IMG/VR virus record: IMGVR_UViG_2541047831_000006
DNA: 10,229 nucleotides
Source: a virus
Lineage: Duplodnaviria; Heunggongvirae; Uroviricota; Caudoviricetes
Strand: one strand, 5' to 3'
Part shown: piece by piece, positions 1 through 10,229 of the stretch
Position numbering within the stretch: the first letter of the stretch is position 1
Layout of the letters: each line of letters starts with the position of its first letter
The notes under the pieces: model-generated
What the model saw: the letters and a program-made list of their open reading frames with translations, nothing else
Told to the model about the DNA's origin: nothing
Database searches by the model: none
Position numbers and translations under genes: made by a program

Positions 1-94
1 CTTGAGTCTTGAGTCTTGAGTCTTGAGTCTTGAGTCTTGAGTCTTGAGTCTTGAGTCTTGAGTCTTGAGTCTTGAGTCTTGAGTCTTGAGTCTT
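1..94 (-). repeat. Tandem heptanucleotide repeat, CTTGAGT on plus strand (AAGACTC on the minus coding strand); 13 complete units plus a partial unit; array truncated by the window edge
   Basis: Direct reading: positions 1-91 are 13 perfect CTTGAGT units followed by CTT. On the minus strand this follows ATGTT and encodes repeating RLKTQDS. Matches the known neuO poly-heptad phase-variation tract. Confidence 0.9.
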
Positions 95-99
95 AACAT
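1..99 (-). CDS. neuO: neuO 5' end (partial): phase-variable polysialic acid O-acetyltransferase; start codon at 99..97, gene continues beyond the window start
   Basis: Minus-strand ATG at 97-99 preceded by AGGA about 8 nt upstream, followed immediately by the AAGACTC heptads. Position directly downstream of an endosialidase tailspike gene, as in CUS-3-type K1 prophages. The rest of the gene is outside the window. Confidence 0.7.
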   Translation of the reverse strand, partial: MLRLKTQDSRLKTQDSRLKTQDSRLKTQDSRLK

Positions 100-252
100 A
101 TTAGTATCCTACGTTATTTTACCACTAGTTACTTTTCTTGTCATTAAAAAGCATTTAAATTTTTATATTTAATTTCGTTGACGTCAATGTTTTTTGCCAA
201 TGTACTTACTTCTTTATGTGATCAGTTCATATTTTTGACGCCAACGAAACAT
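100..252 (-). promoter_or_regulatory. AT-rich intergenic region between tailspike stop and neuO start; candidate neuO promoter (minus-strand -35 TTGACG at 182..187, -10 AAAAAT at 159..164) and 10-bp palindrome TTGACGTCAA (177..186)
   Basis: Sequence inspection only; promoter hexamers are approximate matches to sigma70 consensus. Confidence 0.3.
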
Positions 253-2714
253 TTAGTGCTTCCCTTCTATTAAGTCTAACCTAGCTTTTATTCTTTCTAT
301 TTCTCTGCGCTGCCATGCTGCCTCGATATAGAATAAGAGATCAGGTCTGACCCCCCATCTAGATCCTGCTGGCGTTATTTCAACGCGCTCAATGATGTCT
401 TCCATTACCATCACTGGATTATCATCCTCATCAACAATGATGCTCCCGTCATTATCAGTCAGCGGCATTTCCCTTTGGCCAGTAATGACGTCATCATATA
501 CTGCGGGATAATCGTCATAGCAAAGAAAGGCATAGCGGCATGTTGTGCTTTCTTCTTCCATGAGTCCGTGAGAAATAAGAACATCACGAAGTTGCTGCGC
601 GATTACACCATGATGTATCCTCGCCCCTTCTTCCCCCTTTATAGCGACAGCGTTCAGCCATTTATAAGCGATATACCTGACGTCACCCCAGGCATCCAGC
701 AATGTTTCGTCAGGAGAGACCGGCTCTGTCTTTAATGTTCCGTCACTGGTAACCACAGGATTGGAGCCAAGATAAACTATCGAGAACCTGTTTCCCGGAC
801 CACCAAGAGCATTTACATTATCAAGATAAGGTTTAACATCTCCGTTCTCAAAAAGATGTTCGAGTGCGTTATATACCGCGCGACGTGGAGTACTGCTTCT
901 GGAACCATGCAACGTTATCATTGCACCATCTGCTGAAGACGTTGTTTCACCGCCGCTAACGATTAATCTCTGAGCGGTAACATCATCAGACGGTACTTTC
1001 TTCGCAATAATGGCGTAATTACCCTCAAGTTTGACTTCCGCGCGAACTTGTCCTGATGTACCTGCATGGACAGTCAGTGACTGGACGGCAACATCATCTG
1101 TGAAATCAACGGGTACAGGAACCGTCCTCACGCCTGACGTCGACATAAAAGTAGGAAGCGTTCTGTTAGGAGTGGCTCCGTAGACAAAATCCCTTGAAAC
1201 AAATTCTTCCTGTTTAATTTTCACCCTGAAACAATACAAATCAGCCGGGTGACCATCGTGAACATAAGGATATTTTCTGTTGTTATCCCCTATGCTCCAT
1301 GGGTTTAGAAAGTCTTCCCCACCGAAAATGTAGTACAGCCAGTTGTCTTTGATACAAACTGAACCAACACCAACCGCAGAGTTAACTATTCCGCCCTGAT
1401 AAATCTGATCAGTAACATTAACCCACTCTACATTATCCAGACTCCACTCATTGACGTTAACTCTGGTCATAAATGTTCTTGGATAGTTTCCTGCATAACG
1501 GTTATCAGGTTCTCCTCCTTCCCACTCACCAAATGCGCGCTCACTGCCAAAAATAATCAGCTCATCGCCAACTTTGGCAAAAGGAAGGTTTGAGTGATGA
1601 ACATTATTTGGGAAGCGAAGAGAATTCCATGATGTACCTAAATCAGAGCTTCTGTGCAATGAACTACCGGGTTGAGTACTTAATGTCCCCCTGGTCGTCA
1701 GATACAGAATGCCATCATAATATTTTACACATGGCTCAGATGCATTCGCCTCATATTCTGCAGGTATGCGTCTGCGAACAAAGCTACCAGGAGAACCGAA
1801 AGCATCAGAGAAATAGAGTATCCCAAGCTCGCGTGGACCAATATCACCATTATGGTAGCCAACAGCAAAACTGTTATCGCTAATCGTCGCAAAACTGTGA
1901 ATCTCAGTAACAGGAGTGCTTCCGTCAACAAAAGAAGGAATAGTTCCAAGACTGGTTTTTCTCCATGGTGACGAGTGAAATGATGTACCAAAACTCCAGT
2001 ATCTACCCTCGTTATTCTGATCCACATCCTGGGTATTTTGCGTCGTAACTGTAAAAGTATTTTTATCAATAACAGTAGTCACCGTCATATTCCCGGTAAC
2101 ACCTGTAACACCAGAGTTTGAGAAGTTGACAAAATCACCAGCAAATAATCCGTGATCAGTAATGCGAATATAAGCGACTTGCTGATTTGCTGCTTTCGTT
2201 ATACCACCATAAACGCGAAGGCTGCGACTCATTGGGCGATCCCACAACTCTGCAACCTGCAGTTTATTTCCGCTCACGGTCCGCGTCTCAATTACAGCAA
2301 AAAGGCGATTTCTGACAACCCCCATACTCATGCAGTGATAGTTAACTGTGGGATAGTTTTCATGTAAATCTGTAAGCCATTCCGGCGTTGTCCAGGTCTT
2401 CCCGTCATCTCCTGAGCGAACCCATGCAACATGGAGGTTATTTACACCATGGCGGTCTCCAGCCATAAAAGGCGCATAGATGACATTGTCATATACAAAC
2501 GTTTTATCCTGCGTCCAGGCGTTGTACCACGGTGTATCTGTAATTTTAAATAACTCTCCCTGGATAAAATCTTCAGAAACATAAAAAAGAGGCTGACCCG
2601 GTATTCTCTCAAATAAAAAACGAGCATTTTTAAATCGACTGACATCTGGAAGAGTTGATACTTTAAAAGTAAGCCCTCGCCCATCTATCTTTTCACCACC
2701 TGTTGCAACAGAAA
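253..2714 (-). pseudogene. Endosialidase (endo-N-acetylneuraminidase) tailspike, 3' portion: catalytic region plus C-terminal intramolecular chaperone domain; separated from its 5' portion by IS911
   Basis: The 737-aa ORF (253..2466) aligns by eye to phage K1F endosialidase (DRHGV..HVSWV.SGDDG.TW.TPEWLTDLH..YPTVNYHCMSMGV, through LGSNPVVTSDG and the IHHGVIAQQLRDV chaperone region). The same frame stays open upstream of the first ATG through 2467..2714 (SVATGGEKIDGRGLTFKVSTLPDVSRFKNARFLFERIPGQPL...), so the ATG at 2466 is internal. The reading frame runs into the IS911 end at 2715. Confidence 0.85.
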
Positions 2715-2744
2715 TGAAGTGGTCAACAAAAACTGGCCACCGAG

Positions 2745-3892
<1,148 letters not shown>

Positions 3893-3964
3893 TATGGCAC
3901 CTGTGTTGTTCTGAGGTGAGCATATCACCTCTGTTCAGGTGGCCAAATTCAGTAAACCACTTCA

Positions 3965-4451
3965 AAAGTAATTCTGATAGAGCTGATGTATCATCATGAA
4001 CACCATCACCAATAGCCCCCCAACCTCTTACATCATAACTGTCTCTCCATCTTGCTATCTGAAGTTTTGGGTATTTATTCGCTCCATCTGGGTCTTCTAA
4101 TTGCTGCCGTAGTTGATCAGGATCATACTTCAGCACATTCTGGAAATAGAACTGCTGTACGCCATACGCATCGTACACAGCCATAGAATGGCCTTGCACA
4201 GTTACGAACTTGGCAATCCGTCCGTTATATACAGGGTAACCAGCAGCGTTAATGATGATTGGTTGCGAAACAGGAACGTGAGAGCCGTCTTCGTTCTCTA
4301 CATAAACCTGAATCCGGTTTTCAGGATTTACCGGGTCAGTGTCAATTTTACCGATATAAATTTTGCCATTGGCTACGGCTTTAAAAGAACGCGCCATAGT
4401 GAAGAGTTGCGAAGGCATCGATACAATCACATTGGCTGTAATGTCTGTCAT
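3965..4451 (-). pseudogene. Tailspike 5' portion: P22 gp9-like N-terminal head-binding domain followed by the start of the endosialidase region; reading frame runs into IS911
   Basis: N-terminus [11 protein letters not shown]...[21 protein letters not shown]...[10 protein letters not shown]...[13 protein letters not shown]...NVLKYDPDQ closely resembles the P22 tailspike head-binding domain. It then switches to endosialidase-like sequence ([20 protein letters not shown]) before the IS junction at 3964/3965. Start ATG at 4449..4451 with GGAG about 10 nt upstream. Confidence 0.85.
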
Positions 4452-4507
4452 TTAATTTGCTCCAGATGCAAAGAATCGCCGCAGCATGGCCACGGTGAAT
4501 TTTGGGC

Positions 4508-4532
4508 ATAAAAAAACCCAGCCGAAGCTGGG
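4508..4532 (-). terminator. Rho-independent terminator downstream of ant (minus strand): stem CCCAGC/GCTGGG with CGAA loop followed by a U-run
   Basis: Plus-strand sequence AAAAAAACCCAGCCGAAGCTGGG; on the minus strand the hairpin is followed by 7-8 T residues. Lies between the ant stop (4552) and the tailspike start (4451). Confidence 0.6.
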
Positions 4533-4551
4533 TCGTTGCGTTGGTTATCTG

Positions 4552-5454
4552 TCAGTAATTATGTACTGAAGGAGGTAATTCTTTATTCTTAAGTCTCATC
4601 CATGCGGAAAGATTCGTTGGTCCGTCTGGCTCATTGATATCAACATCTCGTGTGTGATTGATTAAAACGTCTCTCGCCATATCGATAATACGGGAGAACT
4701 CATAACCGCAGTCATGACATCTGCCGGAATAGTTCGATTGAATTTGTTTTAGCGCCGGATACAGTTCGCGGAATAATGCCTGTGAGCGGTTGGCATAATC
4801 CCATAGCCATACAAGGCTGTTTGCTTCTTTTGCAGAAAGCTCGTTGGTTTTCTTCTCTTGTTTGCCGATGAACTCACCTTCAAGCACTACCCTGTGGATG
4901 TACTCTACTGCTTGTGGTATCTGAGATGCATCAAGCTCTTCAATACTTTCCACATTGAAACGCTGATGAATCATTGCATAAGCTTCTGGGTACATTAGAT
5001 GCTTTTTGCTGACTAGCATATTTACAGCATCACGAAGCGGAGTCCTGTCATCAACAGATGTTTTCTTCCGTGCATTTGCTGCCTCTCCCTTTGTCCAGTA
5101 GTCATGCAGCACAGTAAAGCATTCTTCCTGGTACTGAATCAGTTTATCGCGGATGTCAGCACGAACTTTCTCAGGGTTGATGCTGAACAGCCATCCATTT
5201 AACTTCTTCAAAGGAAGGCAGAGTAGCTTACGAAGCTTACCATCAGCGGCAACCATGTTCATATGAACACAGTTGAATTTGCTAATCTGCTTCATGAGTT
5301 TTGTTTGCTGCGTTGACCAGCTCATTCCGAGGTTTTCAACGATTGGCTTCATCGCAACATATGCAACTCCGGCAGCCATGGCGGTGATAATTTGCTGACC
5401 GTTGAATGGCACGTAAGAGGTGTTCACTGCTTCTAAAATTGCTATACTATTCAT
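4552..5454 (-). CDS. ant: Antirepressor Ant (P22 immI-type), about 300 aa; likely start at internal Met ([12 protein letters not shown]...) rather than the ORF-track start at 5520
   Basis: The ATG at 5452..5454 has GGAGA 8 nt upstream, while the ORF-track ATG at 5520 has no Shine-Dalgarno sequence. Gene order arc-ant-tailspike matches the P22 immI region. Identification as Ant rests on this context and on my recollection of the P22 Ant N-terminus. Confidence 0.7.
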
Positions 5455-5455
5455 G

Positions 5456-5522
5456 TTGGTTTTTCTCCACGGATTTACCGACAACCGAAGCCCTGACTGT
5501 TCCAGCAGTTGGGGCTTCACTG
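5456..5522 (+). ncRNA. Candidate sar-like antisense RNA (about 65-70 nt) complementary to the ant ribosome-binding region
   Basis: Plus-strand extended -10 element TGcTATACT (5441..5448) just inside the ant start. Downstream plus-strand hairpin GAAGCCC (5487..5493) / GGGCTTC (5512..5518) followed by a U-rich tract (TGTTTTGATTTCTTTG). The transcript would cover the ant Shine-Dalgarno (plus-strand TCTCC 5464..5468). Analogous to P22 sar. Confidence 0.3.
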
Positions 5523-5686
5523 TTTTGATTTCTTTGCCGCATCAAGCATCACTTCTGAAAACGTGCGCTTGCCACTGAATACTCTTTCTCTTCTCAATTT
5601 TTCGTTCGTGCCAAATGATTCGCCATGAACAAAATTTGGTCTTAAAATGGTAATCGCAATCTCTTTGACTACTGCATCCAAGCGAA

Positions 5687-5839
5687 TCACACCGTTACCC
5701 CCTCTCTCTTCAGGCTGTCTATCAGGCGCTTGATAACCTCTGAGTTAAACGACCTGCACTCTTCCTTTGCCCTGCTACCGATAGCATCCTTTAACGACTG
5801 CGGCATCCTTACCAAAATCTTACTTATTTCTTTCTCCAT
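5687..5839 (-). CDS. arc: Arc-like ribbon-helix-helix repressor (50 aa from the Met with the strong RBS)
   Basis: MEKEISKILVRMPQSLKDAIGSRAKEECRSFNSEVIKRLIDSLKREG resembles P22 Arc (..MPQFNLRWPREVLDLVRKVAEENGRSVNSEIYQRVMESFKKEG). GGAGG lies 6 nt upstream of the ATG at 5837..5839. The ORF-track start at 5875 lacks an RBS. Confidence 0.75.
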   Translation of the reverse strand: MEKEISKILVRMPQSLKDAIGSRAKEECRSFNSEVIKRLIDSLKREGVTV

Positions 5840-5953
5840 GTTACCCTCCACGCAAACAACTCTTTTCGAATACAAAAGATAGCAAAGTGAGTATATCTAG
5901 TCAAAATTTTTTTGCATACACTTTGCTATCAAATTGAATACCAAAGGTGTTAT
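5840..5953. promoter_or_regulatory. Divergent Pant/Pmnt-like promoter-operator region with a perfect 12-bp inverted repeat pair GATAGCAAAGTG (5878..5889) and CACTTTGCTATC (5919..5930)
   Basis: Minus-strand candidate promoter: -35 TTGACT (plus 5899..5904), 17-bp spacer, -10 TATCTT (plus 5876..5881) reading toward arc. Plus-strand candidate -35 TTGCAT (5913..5918) reading toward mnt. One copy of the 12-mer overlaps each promoter. Confidence 0.5.
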
Positions 5954-6202
5954 ATGGCAAAGGGTGTGTCAATTTCTCCAACTACGGTAAGAATCCCTGA
6001 ATCTTTACGCGAGGCTCTTGCTGTCAGAGCATCAAAAAATGGTCGCTCTGTTAACTCCGAGATCGTCATGATTTTGCAAGCCGCGATTGATGAAGATAGG
6101 TCGCCAAAGTCAGTTGAGTCATTTGCTCAGCAAGAAGCTGATAAATTCAAAGAGGCGCTACTTGAGACGCTAAAGACCATGTATGCTAAGGATGAAAAAT
6201 AA
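5954..6202 (+). CDS. mnt: Mnt-like ribbon-helix-helix repressor (82 aa from MAKG...)
   Basis: VRIPESLREALAVRASKNGRSVNSEIVMILQAAI and C-terminal EALLETLKTMYAK resemble P22 Mnt (FRMPMEVREKLKFRAEANGRSMNSELLQIVQDAL ... TLKDLYKK). Divergent from arc-ant as in P22 immI. RBS AAAGG upstream of the ATG at 5954. Confidence 0.75.
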   Translation: MAKGVSISPTTVRIPESLREALAVRASKNGRSVNSEIVMILQAAIDEDRSPKSVESFAQQEADKFKEALLETLKTMYAKDEK

Positions 6203-6738
6203 TGCTGCACACAATTCATTTCTTATGCCCTGTTAACACTGCCACTGTTGGGCAACTTCAGAACCACTGTCTCACCGCATTATCTCAAGGCGCAACTGAA
6301 TTAAATATCCATATATCAAGTCAGGGAGGGGAAACTGCTGCTGGCTTTACTGCGTATAACTTTCTTAAGTCACTCCCTGTTACCGTTAGAACTCACAACA
6401 TAAGCAATGTTGAATCCATAGCTAATATCGTTTTCCTGGCTGGCTCAGAACGTTTCGCAAACCCATTATCAAGATTCCTGTTACATCCTCTATTATGGTG
6501 CTTTGCCTCCCCAGCCGCCGACCATGCCAGATTGAGAGAGTACGGGAAATGCCTCGATAACGATCTTGATCGCTTCGTTGAGACGTTCAATATCGACATC
6601 GGAACCCATATTAGGTGGGCATCCCTGATAGCAGACTCGACCATTTTGGATGCTAACAAGGCTCTTGAGCATGGCATAATTAATTCCATAAAAACTGCAA
6701 GGCTGGCATCCAATCAGGCAAACTGGTGGGTTGTTTGA
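6202..6738 (+). CDS. ClpP-fold (peptidase S14-like) serine peptidase homolog, 178 aa, translationally coupled to mnt
   Basis: Start ATG overlaps the mnt stop (TAATG). Motifs ISSQGGETAAGF, NVESIANIVFLAGS, RFLLHP and DLDRF align by eye to ClpP INSPGGVITAG, GQAASMGAFLLTAG, RVMIHQP and TERDRF, with candidate Ser-His-Asp triad residues conserved. Lacks the ClpP N-terminal axial segment. Confidence 0.65.
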   Translation: MLHTIHFLCPVNTATVGQLQNHCLTALSQGATELNIHISSQGGETAAGFTAYNFLKSLPVTVRTHNISNVESIANIVFLAGSERFANPLSRFLLHPLLWCFASPAADHARLREYGKCLDNDLDRFVETFNIDIGTHIRWASLIADSTILDANKALEHGIINSIKTARLASNQANWWVV

Positions 6739-6761
6739 TGGGTAAATCATGATTACTCCTT

Positions 6762-6785
6762 ATAAAAAACCCACCTGACGGTGGG
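6762..6785 (-). terminator. Rho-independent terminator immediately after the YafO-like gene (minus strand); may also weakly terminate the convergent plus-strand ClpP-like transcript
   Basis: Stem CCCACC (6770..6775) / GGTGGG (6780..6785), loop TGAC. On the minus strand it is followed by TTTTTT (plus-strand A-run 6764..6769); on the plus strand only TTT follows. Confidence 0.6.
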
Positions 6786-6786
6786 T

Positions 6787-7236
6787 TTAGTCAAACATAG
6801 TGTTTCTAAAGTCTCTCGCATACCCTGCTAACACTCTCATTCTATTATGATTGTTAGCAGACATGTGAGCTACAGGATGAAAAAGAGCAATCAATGAATA
6901 CCTGTTCTCATCAAAAAGATTTTGTGCATAAACGAGAGCGGTATTGGATGTTTTATGCCACTGCAACTTTTGCGGTGTGCTGATATCTGTGCCATTTTTT
7001 ATTGGCTCAAATTTATTTTCACCAATTGCTAAATGAAGGTGCATAAGGCCTGCATCTTCAATATCAGGAGGTCGATGATAAGAGGTGTCTCTGCCAAAAT
7101 AGCTGGGCAACGTTCCCGTAGACTTGTAGATGATAAAATCATCTACAAGTGTTTGTTTTAAATCAGGAAACTCAACAAAAACCGGGGAGAAAAAATAGTC
7201 AAAACTATCCTGATTATATTCCACGGTTACTTGCAT
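6787..7236 (-). CDS. YafO-family-like toxin homolog (putative ribosome-dependent mRNA interferase), 149 aa; second gene of a two-gene operon
   Basis: By recollection of E. coli YafO: FIIYKSTGTLPSYFGRD vs FISYKRDGVLPDIFGRD; HLHLA vs HIHLA; ALVYAQNLFDE vs HLVYCQGAFDE; SLIALFHP vs LLIAILKP; NHNRMRVLAGYARDFR vs NNQMHKIGKMAEAFRM. GAGG RBS 6 nt upstream overlaps the upstream gene's TGA. Needs a database search to confirm. Confidence 0.5.
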   Translation of the reverse strand: MQVTVEYNQDSFDYFFSPVFVEFPDLKQTLVDDFIIYKSTGTLPSYFGRDTSYHRPPDIEDAGLMHLHLAIGENKFEPIKNGTDISTPQKLQWHKTSNTALVYAQNLFDENRYSLIALFHPVAHMSANNHNRMRVLAGYARDFRNTMFD

Positions 7237-7244
7237 GTTTTACC

Positions 7245-7811
7245 TCAGTGGAAGTTACCAGAGTGAAACACACGAGTCCCGTGCTCAGCAAGCGCACGCA
7301 AACCAGCCATATCTACGGAACTATCAAAAACAACCGGAACACATGAGCGTTGTTTAATAAGACTATTCAGGTTGGTTACGGCAGATCTGGCATCAGCAAC
7401 AACGATATAGATATCTCTTGCGATCTCTTTAAAATCAGCAGAAGCTTCTTTGAATACCGATTTCATTGCCCCTTCAAGTCCTCTCAATTGATGCTCTATC
7501 AATCGAGACTTTTCTGGTTCAATGATAGACAACACATTGTCTACATTCTCATCGGTAGCGTTTGCAAGAACACGATAAGCGTATTTCAGCATTCGAGACA
7601 ATTCTTTAATCGAAGACACCGCCTCATGAAGCTCATCATTAGCCCGTTCACTGCTGAATGAGGATTGATGGTAAGCGTGCTGAACGTTATCAGTAACAAC
7701 CACCTCACAACTGAACGCAGAAGCTTGCTGTAATAGCAAACCTATTGCGACTCCAGCTTTGGCAGCGTTCAAGCTAAACATTTCATCAATCCCATTAGTC
7801 TCATTGCTCAT
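7245..7811 (-). CDS. Hypothetical protein (188 aa from the Met with the AGGAGG RBS), first gene of the operon with the YafO-like gene; candidate antitoxin or sensor partner
   Basis: Strong RBS AAGGAGG 5-6 nt upstream of the ATG at 7809..7811; the ORF-track start at 7841 lacks one. Predicted largely helical; no motif I can assign. Its stop is 8 nt upstream of the YafO-like start. Confidence 0.55.
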   Translation of the reverse strand: MSNETNGIDEMFSLNAAKAGVAIGLLLQQASAFSCEVVVTDNVQHAYHQSSFSSERANDELHEAVSSIKELSRMLKYAYRVLANATDENVDNVLSIIEPEKSRLIEHQLRGLEGAMKSVFKEASADFKEIARDIYIVVADARSAVTNLNSLIKQRSCVPVVFDSSVDMAGLRALAEHGTRVFHSGNFH

Positions 7812-7986
7812 ACAAACCTCCTTCTTATCGGAGATTATCAATAGCTATGCATCCATTGAATACACGCTATGCGCAATAAGTTTACGTCACGTGATATCAT
7901 TATGCAACCACCGTTCTATCACCGACTAACTTTACTCCCACTCCTATACATCATCTGGTATCCTGCGCAAAACTAAGGAGGTTGGT
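7812..7986. promoter_or_regulatory. Divergent intergenic region between the hypothetical/YafO-like operon and the membrane-protein gene; contains overlapping palindromes TCACGTGA (7887..7894) and GATATC (7893..7898)
   Basis: Strong Shine-Dalgarno sequences on both flanks imply promoters for both divergent transcription units lie here. No confident -10/-35 assignment. Confidence 0.3.
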
Positions 7987-8354: not shown

Positions 8355-8630
8355 TTATTGAGCTTCTTTTTGTGATGCCTGTGCGACTCTGGTGAGCGAT
8401 TGTGTGACCGTACTGATCGCTCTGTCATATGCTGTGCTACCTTTTGGCGTATTTGCCAGACGTAACAAGGCATTTCGTATAACAGGGCTTTCGTATGCCT
8501 TCGCAGCTCCTCCTACGACACCAGCAGCAGGAACAACAAACGCAGCCGTTTTTAGCATCCCCGCTAATACTGCTGCGTTTATGATGCCACCACCAACTAA
8601 CAATCCATAAAGCTGCTGACCATTTAAGTT
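8355..8630 (-). pseudogene. Possible 3' fragment of a gene truncated by IS911 copy 2 (Gly/Ala-rich hydrophobic segment, then a polar C-terminus)
   Basis: The minus-strand frame is open from the IS boundary (8630) through to the stop at 8355. The only in-frame starts are TTG (8603) and an ATG (8558) with a weak RBS. No target-site duplication at this IS copy. Confidence 0.3.
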
Positions 8631-8702
8631 TGAAGTGGTTTACTGAATTTGGCCACCTGAACAGAGGTGATATGCTCACCTCAGAACAACACAGGTGCCA
8701 TA

Positions 8703-9850
<1,148 letters not shown>

Positions 9851-9961
9851 CTCGGTGGCCAGTTTTTGTTGACCACTTCACTATGACCACTGGATGCTGT
9901 GGGCGCAGATAGCACATGCAGACGTAACTAATATTCGAATTGAAGAACTGAAAGAACACCA

Positions 9962-9985
9962 AGCCGCCTGATGGCGGTTTTTTAT
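9962..9985 (+). terminator. Candidate rho-independent terminator (plus strand): stem AGCCGCC/GGCGGTT, loop TGAT, then a T-run
   Basis: AAGCCGCCTGATGGCGGTTTTTTATT. The upstream gene it would terminate is not evident, possibly lost at the IS911 junction. Confidence 0.35.
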
Positions 9986-9993
9986 TGCCTGAT

Positions 9994-10009
9994 TTGCAGG
10001 TTCGATTCC
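9994..10009 (+). other. tRNA 3'-end-like motif (TTGCAGGTTCGATTCC, T-arm-like); possible integrase attachment-site core or remnant resembling the 3' part of a tRNA-Arg gene
   Basis: GGTTCGATTCC is a canonical T-loop sequence, but the flanks do not complete a tRNA cloverleaf. From memory the 16-mer matches the argW T-arm; this is unverified. Confidence 0.3.
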
Positions 10010-10028
10010 CTATTCGGAGATAGCACTC

Positions 10029-10229
10029 ATGCAACACGAACTACAACCTGATTCACTGGTTGATTTGAAATTCATCATGGCCGATACTGGCTTCGGTAAA
10101 ACCTTCATCTATGACCGGATTAAGTCCGGCGACCTGCCAAAAGCCAAAGTTATCCACGGGCGAGCAAGATGGTTATATCGTGACCATTGTGAATTCAAAA
10201 ATAAGCTCTTAAGCCGCGCCAATGGGTAA
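10029..10229 (+). CDS. AlpA-family (phage excisionase-like, MerR-type HTH) transcriptional regulator, 66 aa
   Basis: GGAGA 8 nt upstream of the ATG. The segment LKFIMADTGFGKTFIYDRIKSGDLPKAKVIHGRARWLYRDHCEFKNKL has the AlpA-like pattern. Such genes typically sit in integrase-bearing islands. Confidence 0.55.
   Translation: MQHELQPDSLVDLKFIMADTGFGKTFIYDRIKSGDLPKAKVIHGRARWLYRDHCEFKNKLLSRANG

Follow-up and report, generated by a model that had tools for sequence, protein, structure and literature searches.

A predicted P22-type sar antisense RNA gene opposite the ant leader in a CUS-3-type prophage remnant

We have identified, opposite the leader of the antirepressor gene ant in a 10,229-nt stretch of viral DNA (hereafter the window), an element that we consider, with a probability of about 93%, to be the P22-type sar antisense RNA gene of an immI region, carried by a CUS-3-type prophage remnant. 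The putative RNA of ~68-72 nt (5455..5526, + strand) was delimited by the Rfam model RF00262 (sar RNA), by our own covariance model and by homology to the P22 start. RF00262 gave the single Rfam match in the whole window, at 5455-5521 (+) with E = 6e-17; its score of 83.9 bits compares with a gathering score of 43, and model positions 1-68 of 68 are covered, without truncation. Our own covariance model scored 88.5 bits at 5455-5528.

The first-pass annotation had read this locus as mirroring the sar antisense control of ant in P22. The end-to-end Rfam match, together with 94-97.5% identity to P22 and epsilon34 across the sar regions annotated in them, bears this out, and homology of this extent places the resemblance far beyond chance. 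The element is antisense to the ant leader and occupies the interval from the ant start to the stop codon of the preceding cistron (orf57, 5517-5519). Its own promoter, recognised at the sequence level, has an extended -10 inside the first ant codons, and the second of its two stem-loops is a Rho-independent terminator according to folds, terminator scan, covariation and strand asymmetry. Given the full-length RF00262 match, the position, the promoter sequence, the two-hairpin fold and the immI context, the element is an orthologue of P22 sar, beyond merely sar-like.

The gene is thus an already known RNA gene and an ordinary feature. Sar has counted as a textbook case of antisense regulation since 1987, and the P22 literature on it includes Liao et al. 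1987, Wu et al. 1987 and Schaefer & McClure 1997. The value of the finding lies in annotation: a sar feature is absent from the S88 RefSeq region (read completely), from the phiv205-1 record and from what is annotated beneath the matched stretch in the other top hits.

Target, promoter and fold of the predicted RNA

The target of sar, ant (4552..5454, - strand), encodes an antirepressor of 300 aa with the Pfam domains P22_AR_N (E = 4e-45) and P22_AR_C (E = 2e-28); its RefSeq name is 'phage antirepressor Ant' and its DNA is ~85% identical to P22 ant. The Shine-Dalgarno sequence GGAG, read from the sequence at 5465..5468 (-), 10 nt upstream of the AUG, is invariant among the window, P22, epsilon34 and phiv205-1. 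Sar matches the ant leader in perfect complementarity from position -1 through the Shine-Dalgarno to the upstream stop codon, covering all 62 nt of the intercistronic leader as far as the orf57 stop. The first-pass annotation had the RNA complementary to both the Shine-Dalgarno and the start codon; the former is covered (GGAG, 5465-5468), whereas the complement of the AUG (5452-5454) is left out. Judging by the annotated start in P22, sar would abut the ant AUG without covering it, the AUG complement lying untranscribed between the -10 and +1. Small-RNA sequencing of P22 detected sar, with a contig that starts five bases before the annotated start (PMC13397905); its ends are coverage-based and overrun the terminator, and it leaves the start-codon point unsettled.

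The Psar promoter (5420..5448, +), homologous to the annotated sar promoter of P22 (L001 1219-1247) and to 'Psar' of epsilon34, lies on the strand opposite ant codons 3-12. It consists of a weak -35 (GTGTTC, 5420-5425), a 17-nt spacer and an extended -10 made of TG (5440-5441) and TATACT (5443-5448). This extended -10, TGCTATACT at 5440-5448 (+), is present where it had been reported in the first pass, opposite ant at the ant start, the start codon (CAT on +) being at 5452-5454. Over 5420-5448 only one base differs from the annotated P22 promoter, and TGCTATACT is identical. It is conserved in nine of 11 relatives chosen by BLAST, the other two each being off by 1-2 hexamer bases. Since the -35 is poor (about 2/6), activity, which we expect by analogy with P22, would rest on the extended -10; the poor -35 also accounts for the absence of Psar from the list of a consensus promoter scan. 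By itself the extended -10 motif is not significant in the window: TGNTATAMT occurs once against 0.56 expected, and 81 of 200 shuffles contain at least one.

Transcription would begin at G5455, 7 nt past the -10, a position that matches the annotated sar start of P22, and would end within the U-run 5523-5526, again by analogy with P22. Stem-loop I (5455..5482, +), on which MFE and centroid folds agree, pairs GUUGGU with ACCGAC and holds in its loop CUCC (5465-5468), the complement of the ant Shine-Dalgarno. Stem-loop II (5487..5518, +), the intrinsic terminator hairpin of sar according to terminator scan and folds, has 14 bp (seven G-C and three G-U pairs) and a 4-nt loop, UCCA, and is followed by ACTGTTTTGA. 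At the DNA level this is a G+C-rich inverted repeat at 5487-5518, then ACTGTTTTGATTTCTTTG on the + strand, and it was the only such site in a terminator scan of 5000-6300. The U-rich 3' tail, read from the sequence as ACUG UUUU GA UUU C UUU (5519..5535, +), places 4 nt (ACUG) between the stem and the U-run 5523-5526. The same 4-nt gap separates stem and U-run in P22, where termination has been shown. A hairpin and U-tract had been placed ~65 nt downstream in the first pass; both are present, and that distance fits the end of the hairpin, not its start: from the predicted sar start the hairpin begins 32 nt and ends 64 nt downstream, with the U-run from +69.

Folding of the antisense stretch from 5455 (74-78 nt) gave two hairpins at -32.4 kcal/mol (z = -4.8 for 78 nt and -6.3 for 74 nt), and none of 200 shuffles was as good. 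The hairpin and U-tract proved conserved in related prophages as well: the two-hairpin fold is found in 39 relatives, and a T-run of at least three lies within the first few bases past the stem in nearly all of them, a few tails being cut by the alignment end or interrupted (e.g., SEN22, L031). RF00262 scored 97.8 bits in P22, 95.6 in epsilon34, 69.4 in PhiR12_1, 64.0 in EC.P3, 61.7 in Emek and 57.5 in Cronobacter ES2, with matches below the gathering score in SEN22 and Edwardsiella GF-2; individual folding revealed a common two-hairpin fold in every one of these phages and, at the same place, in Erwinia and Klebsiella phages, out of Rfam reach. The architecture of the relatives comprises a hairpin 1 starting from base 1-2 with CUCC or CCUC in its loop, a short spacer, a hairpin 2 of 12-15 bp and a U-rich tail.

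To these relatives a scan of viral contigs with a pattern that includes the promoter added ~25 more distinct sar versions. About two-thirds of the pattern matches were due to chance, and folding energy split them cleanly (above about -22 for chance matches, -24.7 or below for true ones). Our covariance model took 31 sequences as input and found 39 instances. Since the alignment is fitted to the structure and most loci were gathered by the promoter-containing pattern, the result from these 39 loci speaks for the fold and not for the promoter, whose conservation within this set would be circular. Standard pairs fill 92.1% of cells, compared with 32-51% after shifting of the partners by 1-3 columns; changes on both sides occur in nine pairs, and none of 500 shuffles reached any of five measures. 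In the helix of stem-loop II 95% of cells are paired and both-side changes occur in seven of the 14 pairs, while stem I shows compensatory changes such as GUCAAUA/UGUUGAU, GUCGGU/ACUGGC and GUUAGU/GCUGAC. Plain MAFFT with RNAalifold recovered the terminator helix only, stem I being misaligned by one column, and the covariance-model alignment was used instead. Even there the outermost stem-I pair is off register in half of the sequences (GC in 18, 'other' in 21), which makes the stem-I statistics conservative.

The immI neighbourhood and the gene ending at the hairpin

The locus is a P22-type immI region with one extra small gene: it has an arc-ant operon and a divergent mnt, both repressors being of the ribbon-helix-helix type, and varies from the P22 type in that orf57 separates arc from ant. 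The arc-orf57-ant operon opens with the gene for an Arc-like ribbon-helix-helix repressor of 50 aa (5687..5839, -; Pfam Arc PF03869, E = 5e-12; RefSeq 'Arc family DNA-binding protein'). The next, orf57 (5517..5690, -; 57 codons in the ORF table), matches PHROG 17642 of unknown function over its full length (E = 1e-43), gave no Pfam, NCBIfam or PADLOC match and is labelled hypothetical in RefSeq as well as in phiv205-1. It starts with a GTG that shares bases with the stop of arc (GTGA) and stops with a TGA (5517-5519) among the final bases of the sar terminator stem; the 3' ends of sar and orf57 hence overlap.

The genome paper of epsilon34 (2008) remarked that ant morons of the CUS-3 type apparently have no arc and that control of ant is perhaps different there (PMC2629481). 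This remark can now be corrected, for both an Arc-family gene and sar are present, and ant control in the CUS-3-type prophage accordingly looks P22-like. A promoter scan found a candidate Pant (5876..5904, -) with TTGACT, 17 nt and TATCTT, with TG before the -10; its position matches that of P22 Pant upstream of arc, which suggests the assignment. Divergently, an mnt-like gene (5954..6202, +) encodes a ribbon-helix-helix repressor of 82 aa (Pfam Arc/RHH) assigned to PHROG 2685, whose members include P22 Mnt-type proteins, and is annotated as such in phiv205-1 and RefSeq. We also observed a perfect 12-bp inverted repeat, GATAGCAAAGTG at 5878-5889 and CACTTTGCTATC at 5919-5930 with centres 41 bp apart, one arm over the Pant-like -10 and the other toward the mnt-like gene. 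The arms are candidate operator half-sites for the Arc-like and Mnt-like repressors and differ from the operators of P22.

A cargo lies beside immI (5954-7841). The Mnt-like gene is followed, with a stop/start overlap at 6202, by a gene for a ClpP-like serine protease of 178 aa, which matches Pfam CLP_protease (E = 2e-11) but stays far under the NCBIfam cut-offs for ClpP, and the cargo also holds a YafO-family toxin gene (6787-7236, -) with, upstream of it, one for a 198-aa protein of PHROG 8416, a family without assigned function. None of the three gave a convincing PADLOC match.

Homology with P22 and epsilon34 breaks off at 5519, precisely where the terminator stem ends; past this point P22 has arc and the window has orf57. 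In most of the 39 loci an Arc-like gene ends shortly past the hairpin; several have unrelated small ORFs there. Across phages at least five unrelated small ORFs occupy the slot between arc and hairpin, e.g., orf57 here, orf73 in Emek and orf89 in EC.P3; besides the window (5517-5690, -) such ORFs are found at L011 1534-1755, at L006 779-1048 and in L090, L068/L082 and L049. They all stop at a TGA embedded in the stem (TGAAGCCCC), while the stop of the P22-type arc lies 6 nt beyond it. One further locus, L086, retains a 12-codon orf57 remnant, ~63 nt after the sar start, which looks like an in-frame deletion between two LDA-coding repeats. The sar attached to this remnant differs in its stem I, a hint that orf57 can be dispensed with and that reassortment of modules takes place at the hairpin. 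That the sar terminator hairpin doubles as a fixed joint for module exchange is a more speculative idea, which we regard as doubtful. If the slot ORFs are real genes co-expressed with ant, sar might affect them too, as it overlaps their last codons, and they could be unrecognised players in antirepressor control or superinfection functions. In one viral contig, L131, two sar-like elements (50.7 and 56.2 bits with our covariance model) lie ~1.7 kb apart on opposite strands, at 450-519 (+) and 2211-2287 (-).

The host prophage and the alternatives to a working antisense RNA

By BLAST the window belongs to a P22-like phage (Lederbergvirus), with Escherichia phage phiv205-1 as its closest record (97.7% identity over 4400-6300 and 100% over 5400-5560), and the host element is a CUS-3-type prophage remnant of E. 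coli K1 from which about 33 kb have been lost. The left end of the window (1-101) is (CTTGAGT)n in about 13 copies, then TAACAT. Its - strand reads ATG TT (AAGACTC)n, a phase-variable repeat two bases past the start codon of neuO, which extends past the left window end; neuO, with its AAGACTC repeat, is the polysialic acid O-acetyltransferase gene of prophage CUS-3 (PMC3046976). Two copies of the IS3-family element ISEc52 (RefSeq name; 1257 nt each, at 2715-3971 and 8624-9880) are inverted, 100% identical and separated by 4652 nt. The left copy splits the tailspike (endosialidase) gene into a head-binding domain (3861-4451) and a catalytic part (253-2466); the gene is intact in S88 and PE144. 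On one side of the right copy lies the 3' end of a gene for a gp16-type injection protein (8355-8623), on the other the region of torI (excisionase-like, 9881-10229). Most of the prophage must therefore be deleted, as the injection protein gene and torI lie ~32.6 kb apart in intact prophages, e.g., in MS7163. The same deletion is found in PE144, with the order intS-neuO-tailspike-ant...injection protein (partial)-IS-torI-dsdC. Read from the P22 gene order, the lost stretch should include the virion, lysis, replication and main immunity or repressor genes, and ant and sar are probably left without their cognate repressor in cis.

Could sar be present by descent, but as an inert relic, with a silent promoter or an RNA of no consequence in a decayed prophage? 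The decay itself is evident from the two ISEc52 copies, from the split tailspike gene, from the abutment of the other copy on torI and from the gene order shared with PE144; the immC repressor targeted by Ant should, by gene order, be in the lost part, and the sar-ant circuit may for this reason have no present role in the remnant. The module shows no trace of that decay: ant, arc and the mnt-like gene are intact ORFs, and at least 68 complete E. coli genomes, among them S88, APEC O1 and the type strain ATCC 11775 with their intact prophages, have the sar element and immI block at 100% identity. We hold an inert sar to be improbable; inertness of the circuit would, moreover, leave the identity of the element unchanged.

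Less probable still, and in our judgement very unlikely, is that no separate antisense RNA exists and that the hairpin works only in the sense transcript, as a processing or stability element, or in DNA, as a recombination joint. Such a role would suit its location inside the intercistronic leader of ant, the break of P22 and epsilon34 homology precisely where the stem ends and the different upstream genes that are joined to it in different phages, but the structure is strand-specific. The sar strand is more stable than its complement in 39 of 39 loci, by 9.7 kcal/mol on average. Four of the 20 pairs in the window are G-U, which turn into A-C mismatches in the complement; the leader in the ant sense shows no unusual degree of structure (z = -1.25), and the stem has no T-run behind it on the - strand. 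The two-hairpin structure thus belongs to the + strand RNA. A sense-strand terminator, considered as a further function of the hairpin, was rejected for want of that T-run. Finally, the near-identical element of P22 is a transcribed RNA in the literature (PMC13397905, PMC12197685, PMC7968456, PMC10732415), and we retain the reading of the element as a P22-type sar gene.

Proposed action and known relatives

In the mechanism that we propose, Psar, lying in the first ant codons, would fire on the opposite strand at about G5455, and the resulting untranslated RNA of about 70 nt would end at its own intrinsic terminator (hairpin 5487-5518 and U-run). Pairing with the ant leader on the arc-orf57-ant transcript, sar would hide the ribosome-binding site, and the antirepressor would stay untranslated even when some Pant transcript is made; sar would in this way act alongside the Arc and Mnt protein repressors. 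According to the literature on P22, sar prevents translation of ant by pairing with its ribosome-binding site; it operates on top of the protein repressors, and proper antirepressor control requires it (PMC12197685, PMC7968456, PMC10732415; these reviews cite Liao et al. 1987 and Schaefer & McClure 1997 for sar function). By analogy, we infer that sar blocks ant translation here in the same way.

The comparison with the P22 sar region, suggested in the first pass, showed 94.1% identity over 5402-5519, with sar annotated at the homologous bases. In the records of both P22 and epsilon34 the sar promoter is marked at the equivalent of 5420-5448 and the start of the sar RNA at that of 5455, directly past the ant start codon; the P22 record also marks the sar terminator. 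Window and P22 share the site antisense to the ant leader, the start abutting the ant ATG, the two hairpins, an identical promoter core (TTGCTATACT) and 64 of the 68 model positions, along with the Ant protein family and the immI layout with arc upstream and mnt divergent. The four substitutions are at 5470 (loop I), 5479 (stem I, G-U to G-C) and 5502 and 5504 (both in loop II). The window differs further in a tail more U-rich than the AACUUUACG of P22, in the gene ending at the terminator (orf57 instead of arc), in its arc, which is of a different, Emek-like type, and in its host, E. coli K1, where it is part of a prophage remnant. The sar region of epsilon34 is closer (97.5% identity over 5400-5519), but that phage has a P22-type arc directly upstream, whereas the window has orf57 and a divergent arc; its sar and Psar were annotated by similarity to P22 (EU570103; PMC2629481).

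The comparison may be extended to other small phage RNAs, whose sequences are unrelated to the window sar. c4 RNA is excised from the transcript of its own target, upstream of that target, and is not known to be made from the opposite strand, while OOP RNA of lambda lies over the 3' end of cII and works by RNase III cleavage rather than by blocking a ribosome-binding site. Like sar, c4 RNA (P1/P7) and CA RNA (N15) are small RNAs that silence an antirepressor gene by pairing near its ribosome-binding site (PMC12197685, PMC10732415). The likeness of OOP RNA to sar lies in the opposite-strand cis layout, OOP being a short cis-encoded phage RNA with its own promoter and intrinsic terminator (PMC12197685).
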